A stretch of DNA of 64,000 bases from assembly GCA_037132055.1 (NCBI GenBank), contig JBAXPX010000001.1, forward strand, positions 5,424 through 69,423, written 5' to 3'. Both the position numbers and the translations under genes were made by a program. Of this stretch, positions 1,652-64,000 are shown in pieces (position 1 is the first letter of the stretch; each line of letters opens with the position of its first letter). This DNA is from a bacterium (GTDB taxonomy: Bacteria; Patescibacteriota; Minisyncoccia; Phycocordibacterales; UBA9973). The notes beneath the pieces are model-generated. The model worked only from the letters and a program-made list of their open reading frames with translations, ran no database searches and was not told the DNA's origin.

Positions 1652-1732
1652 AAATTTATTTTAACATATTTTTAAAAAATAAAAAAACAGTCTCTTTTGA
1701 GATAAATGTTTATAATAAGTGCAAAAATTTTG

Positions 1733-1816
1733 TGCCCAGGGAGAGAATCGAACTCTCATGATGTTGCCATCAATAGATTTTGAGTCTATCGCGTCTACCA
1801 ATTCCGCCACCTGGGC
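1733..1816 (-). tRNA. tRNA-Leu (anticodon CAA), long variable arm
   Basis: The reverse complement folds as a cloverleaf with a GCCCAGG/CCTGGGC acceptor stem, anticodon loop CUCAAAA and a long extra arm. Confidence 0.8.
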
Positions 1817-1906: not shown

Positions 1907-3418
1907 ATGCAAAAAAATATACAACAAAAGCAAATTGGAGATTTTATTAAAAATTTAAGAGAACAACGAGGCATGACGCAAGATGATTTTGCCAAAGCTC
2001 TCGCTACGTCTCAAAGTGCAGTCGCTCGAATGGAAAAAGGAGAACAAAATTTTTCCACTGAAATTTTATCAAAAATAAGTAACGTCCTCGAACACAAACT
2101 TGTTTGTATAAATGATTCGATTGATTTTGAAGTAAAGGGTGGAAAAAAATTGAGTGGTACTATTAAAACAAATTTTTCTAAAAATGGCTCTGTCGGACTT
2201 TTGTGTGCTTCCCTACTTAATAAAGGAACAACTACTCTTCACGGTATTGCTCGGATAGAAGAAGTGAACCGAGTGATTGAAATTTTAGAAAGCATTGGAG
2301 TACAAATAAAGTGGATTGATAACAATACTGTAATAATTACTCCTCCAAAACAGTTTAAATTAGAAAATATAAACGTAGAATCTGCTGTTAAAACTCGTTC
2401 TATCGTTATGTTTATGGGTCCCCTTATTCATTTTCTTTCATCTTTTTCTTTACCCCATGCCCAAGGATGCAATTTGGGCAAGCGTTCTATTTCTGCTCAT
2501 ATATATGCCTTGGATGAGCTTGGTATAAAAATCAAAACTACCAATAAAAGTTACGAAATAAGCACTAAAAAACTAAAACCTGCTGAAATAGTAATGTATG
2601 AAACAGGCGAAACTGCTTGTGAAAACATTTTGACGGCTTCAGCACTAATTCCAGGTAAAACGATTATTTTTTTTGCTAGCGCAAATTATATGGTACAAGA
2701 AATTTGTTTCTTCCTTGAAACCCTAGGAGTAAAGATAGACGGCATTGGCACTTCTACCTTAATCGTTCACGGAGTAAAAGAAATTAATAAAAATATTGAA
2801 TATTGGAATAGTGAAGACCCAATCGAATCAATGATGTTTATTTCTGCTTGCATTGTTACAGATTCAAAACTTACTATTACTAGATGCCCGATAGATTTTC
2901 TTTCCCTAGAACTTGAAAAGTTAAAAAGGATGAACTTAAAATATAAAGTTTCTAAAATATATTATTCATATAATGGTCGCACAAAACTGGCTGATATAAT
3001 CATTTTTCCAAGTAAATTAAAAGCTTTACCTGATAAAATTCACGCCAATAAATATCCAGGGATAAATATGGATAATTTGCCATTTTTTGTACCAATTGCG
3101 ATAAAAGCCAAGGGTCAAACAATGATCCATGACTTCTTTTATGAAAATAGGGCTATATATTTCACTGAATTAAATCGTTTAGGGGCAGATATCACTCTTG
3201 CCGACCCCCATAGAGTCTATATTCAAGGTGGAACGCCTCTAAAACCTGCTCAAGTTGTCTGTCCACCCGCCCTAAGACCTTCGATGATAATCCTTGTTTC
3301 GATGTTGGGAGCCCCAGGAACCTCAATCCTGCGTAATGTATATATGATTAATCGTGGTTATGAAGAAATTGCAGAACGATTAAACTCCATCGGCGCAGAT
3401 ATAAAAATATTGAAATAA
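1907..3418 (+). CDS. murA: XRE-type helix-turn-helix domain fused N-terminally to a UDP-N-acetylglucosamine 1-carboxyvinyltransferase (MurA)-like enolpyruvyl transferase
   Basis: The first ~65 aa are an XRE/Cro-like HTH (LREQRGMTQDDFAKALATSQSAVARMEKGE). The remainder has MurA hallmarks: KLSGTIKTNFSKNGSVGLLCASLL at the N-terminus, an active-site-like loop HAQGCNLGKR and the C-terminus NRGYEEIAERLNSIGADI. Confidence 0.7.
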   Translation: MQKNIQQKQIGDFIKNLREQRGMTQDDFAKALATSQSAVARMEKGEQNFSTEILSKISNVLEHKLVCINDSIDFEVKGGKKLSGTIKTNFSKNGSVGLLCASLLNKGTTTLHGIARIEEVNRVIEILESIGVQIKWIDNNTVIITPPKQFKLENINVESAVKTRSIVMFMGPLIHFLSSFSLPHAQGCNLGKRSISAHIYALDELGIKIKTTNKSYEISTKKLKPAEIVMYETGETACENILTASALIPGKTIIFFASANYMVQEICFFLETLGVKIDGIGTSTLIVHGVKEINKNIEYWNSEDPIESMMFISACIVTDSKLTITRCPIDFLSLELEKLKRMNLKYKVSKIYYSYNGRTKLADIIIFPSKLKALPDKIHANKYPGINMDNLPFFVPIAIKAKGQTMIHDFFYENRAIYFTELNRLGADITLADPHRVYIQGGTPLKPAQVVCPPALRPSMIILVSMLGAPGTSILRNVYMINRGYEEIAERLNSIGADIKILK

Positions 3419-4341
3419 TGAAAAAAAAGTCAAAAGTTATCGTAATACTTGGTCAAACGGCTACTGGAAAAAGTGATTTGGCTGTTAAAATAGCCCTTCG
3501 ACTATGCTCAGGACAAGCTCAAAAATACGGCGGAGAAATTATATCTGCTGATTCTAGGCAAGTTTATAAAGACCTTGATATTGGTACGGGCAAAATTACT
3601 AAAAAAGAAATGCAAGGTATTCCGCACCACTTGCTTGATGTAACAAACCCAAAGAAAAAATTTACAGTTGTGGAATATCAGAAAAAAGCAATCTCTGCTA
3701 TGGCAGAGATAATTAAAAAAGGCAAAATCCCTATCATTTGTGGAGGTACAGGTTTTTATATTGATGCCATAACAAAAGGAATAATTTTTCCAGAAATTCC
3801 ACCCAGTAATAAACTTCGAAAAATTCTAGAGAAAAAAACTACCCTACAACTTTTTAAAATGCTCCAAAAATTAGATAAAGCTCGAGCAAAAGATATTAAA
3901 AACAAAAACGAACAGAATAATAGAGTACGACTTATTCGAGCGATTGAAATTGCTAAAACTCTCGGTAAAGTTCCTAAAATCATCAAGGACTCCCCTCCGT
4001 ATAAATTTATAAAAATCGGTCTTTTTGCCCCAGCTGATATTCTAAAAGAAAAAATAAACGAAAGACTTTTTGCAAGAATCAAAGTCGGGATGATTAAGGA
4101 AATAGAAAATTTACATAAAAATGGTTTACCGTGGAAAAGAATGGAAGAACTCGGTCTTGAATATAGATATGTTTCATTATATTTACAAAACAAATTAACA
4201 AAAAAAGAAATGACCGAAAAACTAAATTCTGAAATTTATAAGTATGCAAAACGTCAAATGACATGGTTTAAAAGAGATAAAGATATAATTTGGTTTGATG
4301 CATCAAAAAAGAACTTTAAAAATGTATTACCATATCTATAG
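3418..4341 (+). CDS. miaA: tRNA dimethylallyltransferase MiaA
   Basis: P-loop GQTATGKS, followed by IISADSRQVYKDLDIGTGK and GIPHHLLD. Confidence 0.8.
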   Translation: MKKKSKVIVILGQTATGKSDLAVKIALRLCSGQAQKYGGEIISADSRQVYKDLDIGTGKITKKEMQGIPHHLLDVTNPKKKFTVVEYQKKAISAMAEIIKKGKIPIICGGTGFYIDAITKGIIFPEIPPSNKLRKILEKKTTLQLFKMLQKLDKARAKDIKNKNEQNNRVRLIRAIEIAKTLGKVPKIIKDSPPYKFIKIGLFAPADILKEKINERLFARIKVGMIKEIENLHKNGLPWKRMEELGLEYRYVSLYLQNKLTKKEMTEKLNSEIYKYAKRQMTWFKRDKDIIWFDASKKNFKNVLPYL

Positions 4342-4656: not shown

Positions 4657-5955
4657 TCATTTCCCTATATCTTTACGATATTTCATTCCATGAAACCCCA
4701 TCTTGCTTACAGCTTCATAGGTTTTATTGACAGCCTCTTCTTTGGTTTTACCTGCTGCACTTACTACTAATACTCTTCCTCCGTTTGTGACAAGATTGCC
4801 ATCTTTTAAAATGGTTCCTGCGTGAAATATCACTACCTCTTCATTTTTCTCAGCCAATTTTATCCCATCTATTATTTTCCACTTTTCATAATTTTTTGGA
4901 TATCCATCTGAAACCAAGACAACAACACAAGAAAACATTTTTTTCCAATTTATTTTTATTTGGCTCAGATTCCCATCGATACATGCATCAATTATGTCTA
5001 ATAAATCTGTATCTAAAAGTCTAACATATGCTTCTATGGCCGGGTCACCAAAAGAAGCATTGCATTCTAGTATTTTCATTCCACTATTTGTCCGTATAAG
5101 TTCTGGATAAATTATTCCTAAAAATGTGTTTCCATCACTGCTCATCCCTGACAACATTGGGGTAATTATTGTATCTTCTATTTTTTTAAAAAGCTCGATG
5201 TCAGCAAAAGGAAGCGAAATAATAGCTCCCATACCTTTCGTATTTGGTCCTTTATTATTTTCGTTCAGACGTTTAAAATCTTGCACTATTGGTAATATTG
5301 AATAATTTTTGCCATCAGTAAATGCATGTATAGAAACTTCAGAGCCAAGCAAAAGTTCCTCTATTATTGCTTCGTTTCCGGCTTCACCAAACTTTCTTTT
5401 AATTAAAATATCATCAAGGGCAAAAAGTGCTTCATCTAATTTTTCACATATAAAAACACCATTTCCTGGAGTTAATCCATTTACTTTGATAACTAACGGT
5501 AGTGGATGACTTCTGACATAATCTTCTGCCTTTTTATAGTCATTAAAAATTTCAAATTTTGCAGTAGGCAAATTACAACGTTCCATAAAATGCTTCGCAA
5601 AAGATTTTGAAGATTTTACTTGAGAAGCTTGCTTTGTCGGCCCAAATATTCTTAAACCGTCTTTTTTAAATTCATCAACTATCCCTAATGCAAGCGAACT
5701 CTCTGGTACAACAATGGTCAAATCAACCTTTTCTTTTTTAACAAATTCTTTAAGTTCCAATATGTCTATAGGCCTAATTTGCACATTTGTGCCTAAATCT
5801 TTAGTACCAGCATTCCCTGGTGCAAAATAAAGCTCCCCACACCTTGGTGATTGTGCTATTTTCCAACCCAAAGCATGTTCTCTAGCGCCACCTCCTATTA
5901 TTAAAATCCTTTGTTTCTTAATCATTTGCTTATATTGTAATATAATTTTTAACAA
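4657..5955 (-). CDS. purD: Phosphoribosylamine--glycine ligase PurD
   Basis: ILIIGGGAREHALGWKIAQSP, with ATP-grasp architecture throughout. Confidence 0.85.
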   Translation of the reverse strand: MLKIILQYKQMIKKQRILIIGGGAREHALGWKIAQSPRCGELYFAPGNAGTKDLGTNVQIRPIDILELKEFVKKEKVDLTIVVPESSLALGIVDEFKKDGLRIFGPTKQASQVKSSKSFAKHFMERCNLPTAKFEIFNDYKKAEDYVRSHPLPLVIKVNGLTPGNGVFICEKLDEALFALDDILIKRKFGEAGNEAIIEELLLGSEVSIHAFTDGKNYSILPIVQDFKRLNENNKGPNTKGMGAIISLPFADIELFKKIEDTIITPMLSGMSSDGNTFLGIIYPELIRTNSGMKILECNASFGDPAIEAYVRLLDTDLLDIIDACIDGNLSQIKINWKKMFSCVVVLVSDGYPKNYEKWKIIDGIKLAEKNEEVVIFHAGTILKDGNLVTNGGRVLVVSAAGKTKEEAVNKTYEAVSKMGFHGMKYRKDIGK

Positions 5956-27419: not shown

Positions 27420-27498
27420 TAAAATTAAAAATTTCAAGAGTCGTGGGTCCCCTTGTCCTTATGACTCCAAGGGCGAAGGCTCAGAAATTTTTGAATTT
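27420..27498. repeat. Copy 1 of a ~70-80 nt palindromic intergenic repeat (between atpF and atpE)
   Basis: Near-identical to 37212-37276 (core AAGAGTCGTGGRTCCCCTTGTCCTTATGACTCCAAGGGCGAAGGCTCAGAAATTTTTGA) and flanked by an AT-rich inverted repeat. Confidence 0.8.
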
Positions 27499-37191: not shown

Positions 37192-37287
37192 TAAAATAGG
37201 AAAATAAAAATTTTAAGAGTCGTGGATCCCCTTGTCCTTATGACTCCAAGGGCGAAGGCTCAGAAATTTTTGATTTTCCTATTTTTA
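37192..37287. repeat. Copy 2 of the palindromic intergenic repeat, with a 14-bp AT-rich terminal inverted repeat (TAAAATAGGAAAAT / ATTTTCCTATTTTA)
   Basis: The core is near-identical to 27432-27497. It supplies the last ~14 codons and the stop of the upstream gene. Confidence 0.8.
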
Positions 37288-42134: not shown

Positions 42135-42206
42135 GGCCCTATCGTCTAACGGCTAGGACGGATCCTTCTCAAGGATTAAATTCGGGTTCGATTCCCGGTA
42201 GGGTCA
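42135..42206 (+). tRNA. tRNA-Glu (anticodon CUC)
   Basis: GGCCCTATCGTCTAACGGCTAGGACGGATCCTTCTCAAGGATT…TTCGATTCCCGGTAGGGTCA. Confidence 0.75.
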
Positions 42207-42371
42207 CAAACTAAATTCTATTTTGTTTTGTCTTTTTTGTTAAACCAAGTTTTTTTATTATTATTCTCAGGATGGTTTAAAATTTTTTTACTACATCAAA
42301 AAATTAAACACATAAAAAGTTCCATCCTCATAGATCTTTTTATTTACTTGAAATTTTGATATAATAAAAAA

Positions 42372-60094: not shown

Positions 60095-60155
60095 TTGCGG
60101 TGTGTATTGGACAAAGTTCGAATTTATTTCGAACTTTGTCCAATACACACCGCAA
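60095..60155. repeat. 61-bp perfect palindrome (28-bp arms, 5-nt centre) abutting the left inverted repeat of recombinase unit 1
   Basis: TTGCGGTGTGTATTGGACAAAGTTCGAA-tttat-TTCGAACTTTGTCCAATACACACCGCAA. Confidence 0.8.
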
Positions 60156-61790
60156 CATTTGGAAATTGGGTTCCCCGCGAAAAAATGCGTCGGGGCGAAG
60201 CACCGACGACTGGGCTGAATTCCCGCCAAACCCCGCCCCCGCAAGGATTTCCCACACGGCGGAGCGCTCTTCGTTACCAATACAAAATATATGAATCAAA
60301 CCAAAAAATTTTTTATATATACTCGCAAGTCGACGGACGACAAAGACCATCAGATTAGAAGTATTTCTGATCAGCTTTCCGAATTGAAAGAATTAGCGTT
60401 GAAAGAACGATTAGAAATAGTTGATATCTTTGTCGAGAAGCAGTCTGCCAAAATACCAGGCCGTCCGATATTTAACGAAATGCTAGAACGTATGGAGAAA
60501 GGCGAAGCATCTGGTATTTTGGCGTGGCATCCTGATAGACTTGCGAGAAACTCGGTAGATGGAGGAAAAGTCATCTACCTCGTTGATACCGAAGTTATAA
60601 AAGATTTAAAATTTTCGACTTTTTGGTTTGATCCGACACCGCAAGGCAAATTTATGCTTTCAATCGCTTTTTCCCAATCCAAATATTATGTGGATAATTT
60701 ATCAGAGAATATTAAACGCGGACAAAGAAACAAAGTGAAGGAAGGAATATGGCCTCAAAATGCTCCGCTTGGTTATGTAAATAAAGAAGGTGGTGGAATT
60801 GAGCCAAATATTATTCTTGCTCCACTTATTAAAAAAGCATTTGAGGCCTATGCAACAGGCAACTTCACTTTGCGACAAGTCCGCGATAAATTTAACGCAC
60901 TTGGTTTAACAGGAAAAAGCGATGGAGACCTTTCGGTGTCTAATTATCAAAAACTTTTAAGAAATCCGATTTTTACGGGAATGATGAGATATAACGGCGA
61001 AATTTACGAAGGCAAACACGAACCGATTATTTCAAAGAAACTTTTTGATTCCGTTGCCGAAGTGATGAGTAAAAAATCTAAATCGCATAGCAAAGGATTG
61101 AAGCCGTATATTTATCGGGGATTTTTCCGTTGTGACGAATGTGGCTGTTTTATCACTACCGAACAACAAAAAGGTCATAACTATTTACGATGTACGAAAC
61201 GGAAAAATCCTTGCAATCAGAAATATACACGAGAAGAACTCATCACTTCCCAAATACAAGAAGAAATCAAAAAAGTTTCTTTGCCACTCGATTGGTTAGA
61301 ATGGATGATTGGTGAAAATAAAAAAGACCAATCACCCGAAGTAGAATCGAGTACGCTTTTTGTTGATAATGTAAAATCCGACATTTCTCTTTTAGAATCT
61401 AAAATTGAGAAGCTGATGACGATGTATTTAGAAAATGCCCTAACACTCGACGAATATCGCGATATGAAAAATAAGCTGATGAACGAAAAACAGCTTCTCA
61501 AAGAGAAATTGTCGGATTTAGAACAAAAAGCGAATAATCGGTTCGAACTTACCGAAAAGTTTTTGAAATTCAATATGGAATTGGTAAACGATAGAACAAA
61601 TGAAGAAAATATTCATTTGTTCAAAAAAGTCGGTTCGAACTTTAGAATAAAAGATCGAACACTCCTTTTTGAGCGCTCCGCCGTGTGGGAAATCCTTGCG
61701 GGGGCGGGGTTTGGCGGGAATTCAGCCCAGTCGTCGGTGCTTCGCCCCGACGCATTTTTTCGCGGGGAACCCAATTTCCAAATGTTGCGG
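60150..61790 (+). mobile_element. Recombinase unit 1: a large serine recombinase gene bounded by 120-bp perfect inverted repeats (IR-L 60150-60269, IR-R 61671-61790). IR-R abuts the 3' end of tRNA-Ser.
   Basis: The two 120-bp segments are exact reverse complements of each other. The recombinase ORF starts 21 nt after IR-L and reads into IR-R. Confidence 0.6.
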
Positions 61791-61814
61791 AGGGTACAGG
61801 ATTTGAACCTGTGA
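60291..61814 (+). CDS. Large serine recombinase (resolvase N-terminal domain, recombinase domain, zinc ribbon); its C-terminal ~48 codons are encoded by IR-R
   Basis: YTRKSTDDKD (catalytic Ser), WHPDRLARN, the recombinase-domain stretch LLRNPIFTGMMRYNGEIYEGKHEPIIS, and the zinc ribbon CDECGCF…YLRCTKRK. Confidence 0.75.
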   Translation: MNQTKKFFIYTRKSTDDKDHQIRSISDQLSELKELALKERLEIVDIFVEKQSAKIPGRPIFNEMLERMEKGEASGILAWHPDRLARNSVDGGKVIYLVDTEVIKDLKFSTFWFDPTPQGKFMLSIAFSQSKYYVDNLSENIKRGQRNKVKEGIWPQNAPLGYVNKEGGGIEPNIILAPLIKKAFEAYATGNFTLRQVRDKFNALGLTGKSDGDLSVSNYQKLLRNPIFTGMMRYNGEIYEGKHEPIISKKLFDSVAEVMSKKSKSHSKGLKPYIYRGFFRCDECGCFITTEQQKGHNYLRCTKRKNPCNQKYTREELITSQIQEEIKKVSLPLDWLEWMIGENKKDQSPEVESSTLFVDNVKSDISLLESKIEKLMTMYLENALTLDEYRDMKNKLMNEKQLLKEKLSDLEQKANNRFELTEKFLKFNMELVNDRTNEENIHLFKKVGSNFRIKDRTLLFERSAVWEILAGAGFGGNSAQSSVLRPDAFFRGEPNFQMLRRVQDLNL

Positions 61815-61874
61815 TCCACTTTCGCGGATTCCGGTTTTCGAAACCGGCGCCTTCAACCTCTCAGCCAACCCTCC
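61788..61874 (-). tRNA. tRNA-Ser (anticodon CGA), long variable arm
   Basis: Reverse complement GGAGGGTTGGCTGAGAGGTTGAAGGCGCCGGTTTCGAAAACCGGAATCCGCGAAAGTGGATCACAGGTTCAAATCCTGTACCCTCCG. The D-arm matches the type-II Ser tRNA pattern. Confidence 0.75.
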
Positions 61875-61936
61875 CCTATAATAAAATCTAACATTTTTTG
61901 CGATTTTTTCAAAAATAATATAGTATTAGAAAATAT

Positions 61937-62008
61937 GGCCCTATCGTCTAACGGTTAGGACATCGGCTTTTCAAGCCGGTAATCCGGGTTCGATTCCCGG
62001 TAGGGTCA
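61937..62008 (+). tRNA. tRNA-Glu (anticodon UUC)
   Basis: GGCCCTATCGTCTAACGGTTAGGACATCGGCTTTTCAAGCCGGTAATCCGGGTTCGATTCCCGGTAGGGTCA. Confidence 0.75.
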
Positions 62009-63668
62009 CCTAAAGAGAGATTGTGGAAATTAGAAATATGGAGCGGGTTTTCAAAATGAAAACTCGCACTGGGTAGCCCGCTTCCGCCCTTTGCGGAAGC
62101 GACAAAATCCCAAATCTCGCCAGAATGCATATGAATTGTTTTGTCCTTGATTTCAGGGTTAGAGCCAATTTTTTGAAAAAATTGCTTCCATTCAATTTGA
62201 TTGTCAGTTTTTTCCAAATCAACGGCTTCTTTCAAGGACAAAACCAAAATCCGCAAGGGTTCGATCCAATACTTTCTCTGTTGTCCAAAATCTTTCAAAC
62301 TTTCCTCAATTCCAGCTTTTTGACGAAGTAAAATATCTTTTCGTTCCAAATATTGTGAGCGTTCAATATCTCCGTCTAAATATATAGAAACAAGTTTATC
62401 TAGTTTTTCTTTAATTTCGGAAAGTTCAGATTTTAGATTTTGGACAACATTTCCTTTTTCTGAAATTGATTCTTGTTCCCATTCGTCAATTTTCTTTTCC
62501 ATTTTTTCAATTTCAGAAAAAGGAATTGACGCTTTTTGAAGCGAAGTTTTGATTTGTTCGGAGAGTGTGGATTCTGAAAGATACGGCTGAGAGCAAAAAC
62601 CTTTCTTTTTTGTGCAACGATAATAAATATAACGAGTACCAAAACGATTGATAGAATATTGAGCCGTAATCATACTTCCACACTCGCCACATTTGGCAAA
62701 ACCGAGAAAATGAAATGGATGAGCGATTTTAGATTTTCTCGGTTTTTGCCGAGACTTCAAAACTTTCTGCACTGCTTCAAAAAGTGTCGGAGAAAGTATT
62801 GGTTCAAAGCTTCCATTGTGCCATTCGTTATGATGTTTGATAAATCCTAAATATGCACGATTGGTAAGTAATCGCACAATGCAAGCTTTGGCAAGTGGCT
62901 TTCCTATTTTTGTGACAAGTCCTAAATCCGCCAAATACTTCGCTAGTCCTTCAATAGTGTAAATATTTTTTGAATATTCTTCAAAAGCTCTTACTACAAT
63001 TTTTGAATATACAGGATGAGGTTCAATAGTTTTAGTTTTTAAGTTATTTATATATCCATACGGAGCTTTTGTCAGCCATTCCCCACGGCGAAGTTTTTGG
63101 CGGATTCCTCGTTTTACATTTTCAACCAAGTTGTCAGAAAAATATTTGGATTGTCCGAAAGCCACTTGCAACATGAATTTCCCTTGCGGAGTTGGTTCAA
63201 ACCAAAACTGCGGAAAGCGCAAAGAAACAATTTTGCCAGTATCAACAAGATAGATAACTTTTCCACCATCAACACTATTTCTCGCTAATCGGTCAGGATG
63301 CCATGCTAATATTCCATTTGCTTCACCTTTTTCTATCTTATCTATCATTCTGGCAAATTGTTTTCGTCCTGTGGTCTTTGCGCTTTTCGATTCGGTAAAA
63401 GTTTCTTTTACTGAAATATTTTCTCTGCGAGCATATTCTTTCAATTCAAAAAGTTGAGCTTCAATACTCATTACTTGTTTATCGTCATCTTCCGTTGATT
63501 TTCTCGCGTAGAGAAAATATTTGTTTTGATTTGAGGAATTCATATGCATTCTGGCGAGATTTGGGATTTTGTCGCTTCCGCAAAGGGCGGAAGCGGGCTA
63601 CCCAGTGCGAGTTTTCATTTTGAAAACCCGCTCCATATTTCTAATTTCCACAATCTCTCTTTAGGTGA
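62006..63668 (-). mobile_element. Recombinase unit 2: a paralogous large serine recombinase gene bounded by ~132-bp perfect inverted repeats (IR-L 62006-62137, IR-R 63537-63668). IR-L begins within the last 3 nt of tRNA-Glu(UUC).
   Basis: Exact reverse-complement identity over about 130 bp. The repeat covers the recombinase start codon (ATGCATATG) at one end and the tRNA 3' end (TCACC) at the other. Confidence 0.6.
62138..63549 (-). CDS. Large serine recombinase, paralog of the 60291-61814 gene. The track's ORF extends to 61948 across IR-L and the tRNA; the true stop is uncertain.
   Basis: YARKSTEDDDKQ (catalytic Ser), GILAWHPDRLARNSVDGGKVIYLVDT (identical to the stretch in unit 1), recombinase domain, and the zinc ribbon CGECGSMITAQ…YYRCTKKK. 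Confidence 0.7.
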
Positions 63669-63712
63669 ACTAATTATATCATTTGCACGAATTTTTTACG
63701 AGAAAAACAAAT

Positions 63713-63790
63713 AGCGTGCCTCGTGCGTGCTACGCACGCCTGTGTGATACACAGTTTTCTCCAAAGGAGAAAACGAGGCACGCAATACGC
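63713..63790 (+). other. Perfect four-way-junction (cruciform) sequence: an 11-bp outer stem enclosing three triloop hairpins
   Basis: GCGTGCCTCGT [GCGTGC-tac-GCACGC] c [CTGTGT-gat-ACACAG] [TTTTCTCC-aaa-GGAGAAAA] ACGAGGCACGC. Confidence 0.55.
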
Positions 63791-63860
63791 CCCAACGGCT
63801 CAAATACTGGGAAATGAGCCGTTCAAGAAAAAATGGACTCGGTTTTCGAAACAATTTTGC

Positions 63861-64000
63861 GGGAGGAAGGATTCGCAAAACCGAGACTAATGTTTTTGAA
63901 ATTCGACGGGATTTGGGTTTCCGCCCCGCAGGAGGGTGCGGGAGGAATGCGGGGCGAATTTAATTTAAGCCTTTTAAAATTAACATATTTTTGATATGAT
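63861..64000 (+). ncRNA. ssrA: Possible 5' portion of tmRNA (ssrA) running off the window end; tentative
   Basis: ATTCGACGGGATTTG (63901-63915) is identical to the conserved 5' P2a segment of canonical tmRNA (AUUCGACGGGAUUUG). A pseudoknot-like CCGCCCCGCA…TGCGGGGCG follows, and GGGAGGAAGGATTCG is a possible but atypical 5' end. No GGGG acceptor start or 3' end is visible. Confidence 0.3.

Follow-up and report, generated by a model that had tools for sequence, protein, structure and literature searches.

The A118/LI, Bxb1 and phiC31 integrases are built from the same domain set as the large serine recombinases (LSR) described here, and their elements likewise have a short shared core and hybrid attL and attR ends. 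Phage-type LSR integrases also target tRNA and tmRNA 3′ ends and, in the LI model, have a distal motif lying 5–6 bp further out in the P arms. The present family, in contrast, is only remotely similar to them in sequence and keeps an extra inverted attP-like site. In the yeast 2-micron plasmid, Flp/FRT lies inside 599-bp inverted repeats. The free form that we deduce for our family would resemble it, with two unique segments and two long inverted repeats (IR), each with the site of its own recombinase, and the layout of one locus (L117) is compatible with such a double-IR circle; the family differs in having a serine instead of a tyrosine recombinase, no replication genes and chromosomal integration, and its circle is a deduced one. 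Multiple-inversion systems include the R64 shufflon (Rci/sfx) and the Hin/Gin/Cin/Pin segments, among them the P1 C segment with its long IR; in the shufflon, inversion driven by the tyrosine recombinase Rci switches alternative 3′ ends of a host gene. These systems share with our loci alternating sites, segments bracketed by inverted sites, long IR inside the crossovers and a reading frame across the site. Here, however, the recombinase is a 500-aa LSR encoded within the segment, whereas theirs is a small invertase or a tyrosine recombinase placed outside; no switching between alternative gene ends takes place, and the array is mobile and tRNA-anchored. TnpX/TndX of Tn4451/Tn5397 are large serine transposases that move a small element via a circular intermediate; no RDF is known for them, and their elements are not known to have long IR, an internal att site or tRNA 3′-end targeting. 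A deduced circular intermediate and the lack of a known RDF bring the family close to them, while those three features set it apart. Engineered cassette exchange with two inverted attP sites, as outlined in a preprint (bioRxiv 10.1101/2020.11.25.398784), has the same serine-integrase cassette flanking, whereas here the arrangement is natural and the integrase is encoded by the cassette itself.

The window, i.e., the whole 64,000-nt stretch of DNA that was analysed, holds two units of this kind. We read both as integrated copies of small LSR-moved elements, seated in the last 4–6 nt of tRNA (in other loci tmRNA) genes, that would leave as a circle and re-integrate, and we give this reading a probability of about 55%. 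Unit 1, on the tRNA-Ser side, comprises the following features:

60095–61790 (approximate): span of unit 1, palindrome counted in
60095–60155: palindrome of 61 bp
60095..60122, minus strand: attR-type outer site, P arm TTCGAACTTTGTCCAATACACA followed by core CCGCAA; P arm and core recur here as an exact duplicate
60123..60127, no strand: 5-nt spacer TTTAT between two inverted P arms, at the cargo-cassette position, here emptied
60128..60155, plus strand: left half of the internal complete attP-like site, P arm plus core CCGCAA
60150..60269, plus strand: IR arm x, with core, P′ half-site and LSR1 leader; perfect complement of 61671–61790
60291..61814, plus strand: LSR1 ORF, 507 aa, its last ~48 codons in the 3′ arm and antisense tRNA-Ser
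61671..61790, minus strand: IR arm x′, with C-terminal tail coding, P′ half-site and core; attL together with the tRNA
61787..61874, minus strand: tRNA-Ser(cga), the B-arm target of unit 1, converging on LSR1

The P arm at 60095..60122 forms the left half of the palindrome, and to the left of this outer site lies host DNA with a promoter and the start of a membrane-protein gene. The P arm is the conserved 5′ flank across the unit-1 family; in relatives, the equivalent P arm leads into ~200-nt ‘a’ arms around 1.5–2 kb. The palindrome is a cargo cassette collapsed to its ends, without cargo; it belongs to unit 1 and therefore sets the extent of the span given above. The core CCGCAA occurs at both 60095–60100 and 61785–61790, the IR is perfect over 120 nt (97% over 131 nt when extended), and arm x′ overlaps tRNA-Ser by 4 nt. 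A TTCGA motif lies 22–24 nt from the core in the P arm, versus 18 nt in the tRNA T-loop.

Unit 2, on the tRNA-Glu side, and an empty target used for comparison are laid out as follows:

61937..62010, plus strand: tRNA-Glu(ttc), the B-arm target of unit 2, converging on LSR2
61948..63549, minus strand: LSR2 ORF, 533 aa, continuing through the arm and across the whole of antisense tRNA-Glu
62006..62137, plus strand: tRNA-side IR arm, with core TCACC, P′ half-site, two hairpins and tail coding; attL with the tRNA
63537..63668, minus strand: IR arm at the LSR2 5′ side, with leader and start codon
63664..63691, minus strand: attP-like site, internal, with P arm TTCGTGCAAATGATATAATTAGT and core TCACC
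63669..63960, minus strand: ‘a’ arm of a second IR pair, structured and GC-rich, its partner arm and cargo past the window end
42135..42207, plus strand: unoccupied comparison target tRNA-Glu(ctc), TCAC followed directly by host DNA

The arms at 62006–62137 and 63537–63668 are 100% complementary over 132 nt, and the P arm holds a conserved TAnnAT (−10-like) box. The segment 63669..63960 is 77–93% identical to both arms of the 297–324 nt cargo-enclosing IR in two relatives (L001 and L007), and in a 99% identical contig (L083) an ORF begins 7 nt beyond the point where the window ends; because of this ‘a’ arm and this continuation, we assign cargo to unit 2. A search of the rest of the window found no comparable repeats besides those of units 1 and 2.

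The first-pass annotation had named the LSR genes, repeats, tRNA genes and palindrome, and all are real; the LSR2 start codon does lie within its arm, and neither ORF meets a stop codon in the arms, both staying open into antisense tRNA. It had each pair stop within 3 nt of a tRNA end, but the arms overlap the last 4–6 nt (CCGCAA, TCACC), and it had called the two pairs unrelated, but they have a common architecture and protein similarity extends into both. Its description of units of 1.65 kb with no cargo stands for unit 1 as far as the missing cargo goes and fails for unit 2, whose cargo starts just past the window end. Repeat–LSR–repeat without cargo is likewise not the normal state of the family, since a further, cargo-bearing cassette bounded by IR is present in most members.

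Both LSR1 and LSR2 contain Resolvase, Recombinase and Zn_ribbon_recom domains: PF00239, the N-terminal resolvase catalytic domain, matches with E values of 2.6e-20 and 5.5e-24 in the two proteins, and PF07508 and PF13408 are above cut-off in both. All 13 sequences compared preserve the YxRxS nucleophile motif (Y14, R16, S18) and DRLAR unchanged. In LSR, a coiled-coil insertion in the zinc-ribbon domain governs directionality; in the present proteins the segment after the zinc ribbon is E/K-rich. Judged by their catalytic, Recombinase and zinc-ribbon domains, the two are members of the large serine recombinase family. The catalytic domains, earlier put at about 70% identity, are 61% identical, with 74% reached only in the catalytic core; the full-length proteins are 39% identical. 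The LSR ORF is the one reading frame that crosses a site, and its tail past the att core amounts to just 15–19 unconserved residues. Relatives of LSR1 at 65–88% identity occur in 80 metagenome contigs; CcrB and XisF models score far under their cut-offs, and PDB matches cover the catalytic domain only. The IS607 family was rejected, as the catalytic domain alone aligns (45.9 bits versus a cut-off of 110) and proteins of 507 and 533 aa with LSR C-terminal domains contrast with a small recombinase with an N-terminal HTH. Small serine invertases (Hin/Gin/Cin/Pin, Mpi) have ~190 aa, a C-terminal HTH and ~26-bp inverted sites plus an enhancer; this class was rejected too, the Mpi model giving 19.8 bits against a cut-off of 272 and the domain architecture being different.

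The long IR that the annotation proposed to look for in homologues are present: repeats of 80–300 nt surround the LSR in 92 of the 98 related loci whose flanks are long enough (49/53 from genomes, 43/45 from metagenomes), and 42 of the 92 pairs are 100% identical. The 3′ arm overlaps a convergent tRNA end by 3–6 nt in 73 loci, and the tRNA is convergent with the LSR in 73/73 clear cases; the only exceptions to this arrangement are L028, L177 and also L006, which has tRNA-Leu genes on both sides. Across the family, 12 different tRNAs are targets, plus tmRNA in 5 further loci. Elements measure 1.7–5 kb, with perfect arm duplications of 110–430 bp, and viral contigs gave almost no matches to this LSR family. 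We conclude that the family consists of small mobile elements at tRNA 3′ ends, widespread in the ultra-small CPR/Patescibacteria and apparently undescribed. Our literature search for this element architecture found no prior description, in line with the early suggestion of a new class of compact tRNA-targeting LSR elements.

Each element has three junction types. The first is attL, composed of tRNA (B), core and P′x; the second is an inverted, roughly symmetric complete attP-like site at the LSR 5′ end (aP, core, P′x); the third, further out, is attR (aP, core and B′ with the native tRNA terminator). Three-way alignments of these junctions at 14 loci (10 with all three complete, the others shortened by contig ends) gave a shared core of 4–9 nt and terminator hairpins in B′. 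attL and attR stand in direct orientation around the inverted internal site; neighbouring sites face opposite ways, and the exchange of half-sites between partners falls exactly at the core. Both arms vary at their outer ends in step with the tRNA 3′ end, and the complete inverted P/core/P′ site persists beside the LSR in nearly all loci. Since three sites have one shared core, the long IR are, as read from these alignments, inverted duplications of the attachment-site arms next to the core, the x arms bracketing the LSR and the ‘a’ arms the cargo. The repeats had been taken for element termini; instead, one arm ends at attL and the other at the internal complete attP-like site, with attR further out. 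A canonical single-attP element was rejected in view of the complete inverted attP-like site retained in the integrated form.

Conservation of the P arm extends across hosts, and its GTTCG lies 23–24 nt from the boundary in 33/44 loci; in the tRNA T-loop, GTTCG lies 18 nt from the boundary in 42/44, and the difference between the two distances is 5–6 in 34/44. In attP, relative to attB, the motif of the zinc-ribbon domain is described as shifted 5 bp outward in the account given in PMC3783163. By sequence the GTTCG offset matches this shift, and the motif may be bound by the zinc-ribbon domain. The putative P-arm promoter consists of the conserved TAnnAT box only; a sigma-70 scan made no call there.

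A second IR pair with 1.1–3.2 kb of diverse cargo, in which an HTH_3 gene recurs, is common. The LSR cassette is always the tRNA-adjacent one, and the cargo is always distal and divergent from the LSR. Empty sites, which the annotation had suggested seeking in relatives, exist: tRNA-Ser(cga) is empty in L001 and in L083, the contig sharing unit 2 at 99% identity while its neighbouring DNA is only 80% identical. There is polymorphism in the other direction too, as the tRNA-Glu(ctc) locus, empty in the window, holds an LSR2-like element (90% aa) in L081/L082. LSR that are 95% identical sit at different tRNA-Ser isoacceptors. L125 and L177 are 100% identical over 1251 nt from the core inward, yet a P arm adjoins this stretch in one and a tRNA in the other, and in L120 and L124 one and the same cassette faces opposite ways relative to a shared ‘a’ arm. 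L117 has four sites, with two LSR and two cargo cassettes alternating and hybrid junctions, as expected for the fusion of two two-cassette circles; L001 and L029 are chains of abutting IR pairs. Recombination is ongoing, as presence/absence, tRNA relocation and the varied junction partners show. Among the sequences examined we saw neither an excised circle nor a circular contig.

We hypothesize that LSR-mediated attL × attR recombination would produce a two-cassette circle with two inverted att sites in between. Either site could recombine with a tRNA attB to integrate the circle; B would always join P′, placing the LSR cassette beside the tRNA. The retained internal site would supply the LSR promoter and leader, probably with autoregulation. 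It could let the cassette invert, via the LSR or via homologous recombination in the arms, and could also allow element fusion and cassette swaps, while gene conversion between arms would maintain their identity. We deduce the double-att circle solely from how attL and attR are oriented. Given its two identical att sites, such a circle is expected to integrate either way, and the 73/73 convergent cases count against the model, which would therefore need selection or a locking flip. Moreover, RecA inversion within the arms would mimic junction polymorphisms made by the LSR. As far as the account in PMC3783163 goes, canonical LSR perform no attP × attP or attL × attP recombination and require an RDF for attL × attR; no RDF is evident in the cargo-less unit 1. 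Tentatively, and with clearly less confidence than in the main reading, we consider that the elements may form an LSR-driven cassette system of CPR, whose integrases would also pair P × P and L × P and so give RDF-independent double-att circles, inversion, fusion and exchange between elements.

Of the alternatives, a resident self-inverting switch survives best, and we regard it as improbable yet worth weighing. Recombination by the LSR or through the arms would turn the LSR gene itself round, so that it alternates between running with the tRNA and a locked state convergent with it; inversion would be the main activity and mobility rare or historical. The sites flanking the LSR are indeed inverted with identical inner arms, the 5′ neighbour of an identical cassette is a P arm in one case and a tRNA in the other (L125/L177), a cassette occurs both ways round relative to an ‘a’ arm (L120/L124), and the strong bias in orientation is compatible with a flip into a locked end state. 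The switch suggested at first reading thus finds some support in these alternative junctions, but inversion alone explains too little: it leaves presence/absence, 12 tRNA targets plus tmRNA, and an attR with displaced terminator unaccounted for. In addition, the alternative state appears in only 3 of ~125 loci, and flipping alters nothing outside the cassette, so no regulated host phenotype is apparent.

Less probable still is that the repeats act at the RNA level, with the complementary 5′ leader and 3′ end, and the arm after the tRNA, serving as terminators, stabilisers or dsRNA control, and whatever part the inner site plays in DNA recombination being incidental. Two GC hairpins in x covary family-wide, with G-U pairs on the leader/tRNA-trailer strand, the fold z-scores of unit 2 range from −3.5 to −4.1 (−4.1 for the tRNA-side arm), and conservation in the arms often exceeds that of the LSR body. 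The unit 1 arms, however, are not significantly structured (z of +0.6 and +1.4), the identity boundary falls exactly at the att core, where hybrid junctions show DNA exchange, and the geometry of ‘a’ arm and attR is unexplained.

We rate slightly lower an IS-like cut-and-paste mode, in which each IR-bounded cassette would be an independent transposon with LSR half-sites in its long terminal IR, excised as a circle with abutted ends and inserted at cores beside tRNAs or other cassettes. A P-type half-site does occur at every cassette end, cassettes are chained in L117 and L029, and the unit 1 palindrome resembles a cassette made only of its ends. Against this, the shared core of several lineages (Glu TCAC, Ala CCAC) has no palindromic dinucleotide, so that a pair of inverted sites permits inversion but no excision; the cassette order is fixed (LSR by the tRNA, cargo distal and divergent) instead of random, and no target-site (direct) duplication flanks the arms. 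An IS or transposon with terminal IR was also rejected on structure, one arm ending internally with conserved element DNA (P, ‘a’ arms, cargo) following it.

An assembly artefact (a collapsed or chimeric duplication), the objection that the annotation itself raised, has a negligible probability: many contigs do end close to these repeats, but such ends fall inside the longer ‘a’ arms, where a k-mer-limited assembly would be expected to stop, and the same layout recurs with precise junctions in ~90 independent assemblies from different pipelines, with arm identity from 78 to 100% and arms diverged by 3–22% in a quarter of cases.

If the model of integrated, mobile elements is true, it describes a new serine-integrase architecture, an integrated element with a complete inverted att site and long identical arms. 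It raises questions of directionality control, because the enzymes may pair sites that canonical LSR refuse. On tRNA and tmRNA ends the data supply natural attP/attB pairs by the hundred, which could serve genome engineering, and the family explains recurrent contig breaks beside tRNA genes in CPR metagenome assemblies. The cassette system, if true, would be the serine-recombinase counterpart of integrons and shufflons, shuttling accessory genes between tRNA loci. The family is a widespread accessory-gene vehicle in CPR/Patescibacteria, whose mobile elements are poorly known.

Every sequence feature that the first-pass annotation had listed at the adjacent tRNA-Ser and tRNA-Glu genes was found in the window. 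Two units, each a large serine recombinase (LSR) gene between the arms of an inverted repeat (IR), are laid out as follows.

Features of the two units, window coordinates (P, element half-site; core, short shared sequence)
60095-60122, minus strand, and 60128-60155, plus strand: unit 1, two copies of P arm plus core (TTCGAACTTTGTCCAATACACA-CCGCAA), with TTTAT between
60150-60269 and 61671-61790: unit 1, IR arms, 120 nt, perfect (131 nt at 97% when extended)
60291-61814, plus strand: LSR1 reading frame, 507 aa
61787-61874, minus strand: tRNA-Ser(cga)
61937-62010, plus strand: tRNA-Glu(ttc)
63549-61948, minus strand: LSR2 reading frame, 533 aa
62006-62137 and 63537-63668: unit 2, IR arms, 132 nt, perfect
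63664-63691: unit 2, P arm plus core

Resolvase, Recombinase and zinc-ribbon domains are present in both proteins. Some details changed on closer measurement: the arms do not end short of the tRNAs but instead contain their last 4-6 nt; LSR1 and LSR2 share 61% identity over the catalytic domain, not about 70%, and 39% overall; and the two repeat pairs, described as unrelated, encode protein tails into which the LSR1/LSR2 similarity extends (VWEILAGAGFGG vs IWDFVASAKGGS). No second comparable repeat lies elsewhere in the 64-kb window. In Rfam the arms had no match at E<=1, the palindrome of unit 1 had spurious miRNA matches alone, and the whole window matched tRNAs and nothing else. Elsewhere, a 77-nt direct repeat (27422-27498 and 37201-37277; 95% identical, 9.8 kb apart) has a GC-rich centre and AT-rich ends and matches no Rfam family at threshold.

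Exact-protein look-ups with LSR1 and LSR2 returned no identical record, and context was taken from near relatives. Homologues of LSR2 number more than 7000, chiefly in CPR/Patescibacteria, many on contigs of 1.7-2.6 kb. We sampled 80 genome loci and 80 metagenome loci of LSR1 relatives (locus numbers prefixed L below). Where enough flank was available, the LSR has an IR pair of 80 nt or more around it in 49/53 genome and 43/45 metagenome loci, so that the proposed check on homologues, whether they too are flanked by long IRs, came out positively (92 of 98). Median arm length is 131 nt in genome and 120 nt in metagenome loci, with a spacer of about 1.4 kb; arms are 100% identical in 42 of 92 pairs and as low as 78% in the others. 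Because the layout recurs and the arms have partly diverged, an assembly artefact is excluded. The 3′ arm stops at most a few nt from a tRNA 3′ end, and mostly overlaps it, in 73 loci; the tRNA is convergent with the LSR in 73/73 clear cases, being otherwise placed only in L028, L177 and L006. The targets are tRNAs for Glu, Leu, Ala, Ser, Pro, Lys, Gly, Arg, Ile, Gln, Val and Trp; in the CPR genome locus L043 (1832-1905) the target received the anticodon call tta (“tRNA-Stop”) and may be a suppressor tRNA or a recoding one. In five further loci the tmRNA gene (ssrA) takes this place, convergent and overlapping as with tRNAs.

tmRNA targets, locus coordinates
L010: 1810-2209
L012: 5512-5953
L034: 1822-2223
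L055: 5514-5905
L080: 5523-5918

Since viral contigs gave just 16 matches, all distant or partial, the family, as judged from such comparisons, is not a typical phage integrase family.

The junctions follow a regular grammar. Both arms covary at their outermost bases with the 3′ terminus of the targeted tRNA (Glu TCACC; Ser CCGCA; Ala CCACC; Leu GCACC; Pro CGACC). The flank just outside the LSR-5′ arm is conserved across hosts and is not host DNA; its consensus is CTCGAAAAAGGTTCGNGCAAAGGnTAnnAT, with 4-5 nt separating this from the core. In 16/41 genome loci and 8 metagenome loci this flank runs on into a second IR pair, whose “a” arms (150-435 nt) bracket a cargo cassette, the partner arm lying 1.1-3.2 kb further out; the arms that bracket the LSR are called x. 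An alignment of 14 loci, with all three junctions complete in 10 and the rest ended by contig ends, gave the types tRNA|core|P′x, aP|core|P′x and aP|core|B′, with cores of 4-9 nt, where P and P′ are element half-sites, B is the tRNA body and B′ the host side. A terminator hairpin, the displaced native tRNA terminator, often opens B′. In the vocabulary of serine integrases, we read the first and last of these junctions as attL and attR, and the middle one as a complete attP-like site that points the opposite way to both. A GTTCG motif stands 23-24 nt from the boundary in P arms, against 18 nt for its T-loop counterpart in the tRNA, and the two distances differ by 5-6 nt in 34/44 loci; this shift supports our reading because it matches the rule, given in PMC3783163, that the zinc-ribbon-domain motif lies 5 bp nearer the centre in attB than in attP. 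The same reading is supported by the rough symmetry of the internal site, as the P′ arm has a mirror motif about equally far out. We hold this structural interpretation with considerable confidence.

The 61-bp palindrome of unit 1 was indeed present but had been placed outside the unit. It lies inside: with the P arm and core present twice and TTTAT between, it is attR and the internal site back to back, that is, a cargo cassette shrunk to its two ends. In relatives, an identical P arm runs on into “a” arms of about 200 nt enclosing 1.5-2 kb. Unit 1 thus extends over about 60095-61790 and is genuinely cargo-less, as first described, a state not typical of this family. The 4.4 kb from TrxB up to tRNA-Ser had been suspected as its cargo, given that TrxB adjoins an empty tRNA-Ser in L001; this was rejected because the second P arm and core put the element end at 60095, and the interval holds pyrF, pyrE-like and membrane-protein genes, assigned to the host. 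The description as cargo-less failed for unit 2. Its flank at 63669-63960 is 77-93% identical to both arms of the cargo-enclosing IRs in L001 and L007 (297 and 324 nt), and in L083, a contig 99% identical, a reading frame divergent from LSR2 begins 7 nt past the window end; unit 2 therefore carries cargo.

Within this “a” arm, 40-110 nt from the att core, a cloverleaf-like four-way fold of about 70 nt (63712-63780) is seen by single-sequence folding and inspection by eye (z-score -3.7, both strands). It recurs in the “a” arms of L001 (3735-3815), L004, L081 and L007, with closing stem GCGTGCCTCG/CGAGGCACGC and three hairpins whose sequence varies between loci while pairing is kept; it has no Rfam match, and RNAalifold gave no structure for the “a” arms, which are heterogeneous. 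Two more long hairpins (CTCGGTTTT..AAAACCGAG; CGCCCCGCA..TGCGGGGCG) occupy 63820-63960 and are 92% conserved with L001 and L007, above the LSR gene itself. Transcription of the cargo points away from the LSR in almost every case. In 8/21 cargos the gene beside the internal site is a small one of HTH_3 (XRE-type); other cargo genes encode PemK toxin, aromatic amino-acid lyase, APH-type kinase, TPM domain and cytochrome D1 domain proteins, and unknowns. L171 has a LOOT RNA (RF03000, 77 bits; 1364-1498) on the cargo side of an LSR1-type element.

The x arm comprises the P′ half-site (GAAAC-TT), two GC hairpins and a conserved stretch encoding WGELWDF. The hairpins vary in sequence by lineage and keep their pairing, with G-U pairs on the leader/tRNA-trailer strand. 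The LSR frame is open across the whole 3′ arm in 52/57 loci (other five frames, 14-34/57). Of the 60 loci with a locatable stop codon, 53 have it past the arm; in six more the frame leaves the contig. A purely coding arm was rejected despite the open frame: the bias at third codon positions is weak, 41% vs 55% for the gene body, and the hairpin part lacks conservation at the protein level. Given these results, the paired hairpins and the arms being often more conserved than the LSR gene, the arm appears to be under mixed constraint from coding, structure and protein binding.

Comparisons among loci revealed movement and reassortment. L083, which comes from metagenome ERZ27300137, is 99% identical to window 61933-64000, its adjoining tRNA-Ser region only 80%, and its tRNA-Ser(cga) site is free of insert, the empty site that the first annotation had proposed to look for; it was the only candidate found for an isogenic empty site of unit 1, with a flank just 80% identical. 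L083 begins with Nextera adapter sequence (1-33). A degenerate tRNA-Glu 5′-half fragment lies between its tRNA-Glu and tRNA-Ser (2245-2305), and so the intact tRNA-Glu beside the element may have arrived with it. With the shared tRNA-Ser/spacer as reference, the whole block of tRNA-Glu and element lies one way round in L001 (1495-1528) and the other way round in the window (61885-61918); a similar promoter-like TTGC[GA]A..CAAAAAT is present at each end of the block. The RmuC-linked tRNA-Glu(ctc), empty in the window (42135-42207), is occupied by an LSR2-like element (90% aa) in a Nomurabacteria relative, and LSRs 95% identical occupy different tRNA-Ser isoacceptors. L125 and L177, which trace to the Ga0209541/Ga0209542 samples, are 100% identical over 1251 nt from exactly the core onward; upstream is a P arm in one and a co-directional tRNA-Ser in the other. 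The cassette shared by L120 and L124 (97.8%) faces opposite ways in the two loci with respect to the same “a”/P arm. In L117 two different LSR cassettes alternate with two cargo cassettes through hybrid junctions, as would be expected for two two-cassette circles fused at att cores. The contig (1-6775; LSRs at 2396-3775 and from 5629) begins inside the 3′ end of an LSR frame, after which comes an inverted copy of the arm at 5513-5592; it is possibly a free circular cointegrate. In L006, two convergent tRNA-Leu genes flank an LSR cassette whose arms are decaying (93.6%), the arrangement to be expected if the internal site had recombined with a second attB. The tRNA-Leu(caa) adjoining the 5′ side of this cassette (3792-3876) is 99% identical to window 1732-1816, but its orientation with respect to the same upstream gene is reversed between the two.

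We hypothesize that, because attL and attR are in direct orientation, their recombination would release a circle in which two inverted att sites split the LSR cassette from the cargo cassette, and which could then insert at a tRNA again. The internal site that is retained, with a conserved TAnnAT 4-5 nt before the core, would probably supply the LSR promoter/leader and autoregulation (a sigma-70 scan did not call a P-arm promoter), and would also allow inversion, fusion and cassette exchange. Arm identity would be kept by gene conversion or by recent movement. We give this composite explanation as a whole a probability of roughly 0.55; the double-att circle specifically is tentative, somewhat short of an even chance. 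No excised circle was observed, and the convergent-orientation bias is not predicted by a simple circle model. According to PMC3783163, canonical LSRs refuse the site pairings needed for inversion or for excision without an RDF, the factor they need for attL x attR. Homologous recombination within the arms would yield the same isomers as LSR action. Two further models, a single-stranded substrate folded into a hairpin attP and a replicon with hairpin telomeres, were rejected, as integration would break the chromosome or need two LSR copies.

By domain content, the proteins are LSRs remote from characterised ones: LSR1 and LSR2 score far below the cut-offs of the CcrB and XisF models, and PDB matches cover the catalytic domain only. 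LSR integrative elements at tRNA genes share the working logic of this element; however, they are expected to have no complete attP once integrated, and this defining expectation failed because one persists here. Definitions of the IS/TIR transposon, IS607, the small invertase system and the shufflon do not apply, and the deduced circle, with two segments and two inverted sites, would resemble the yeast 2-micron plasmid. In full-text literature searches of incomplete coverage, no account came up of LSRs bounded by long inverted duplications of att arms, nor of elements of this kind in CPR bacteria, which is absence of evidence only. Taken together, these elements have a three-site (or multi-site) grammar of alternating orientation, in which B always joins P′ and P always B′; they target tRNA/tmRNA 3′ ends and are polymorphic in presence, position and junction partners, which is of relevance to site-specific recombination and to CPR genomes.
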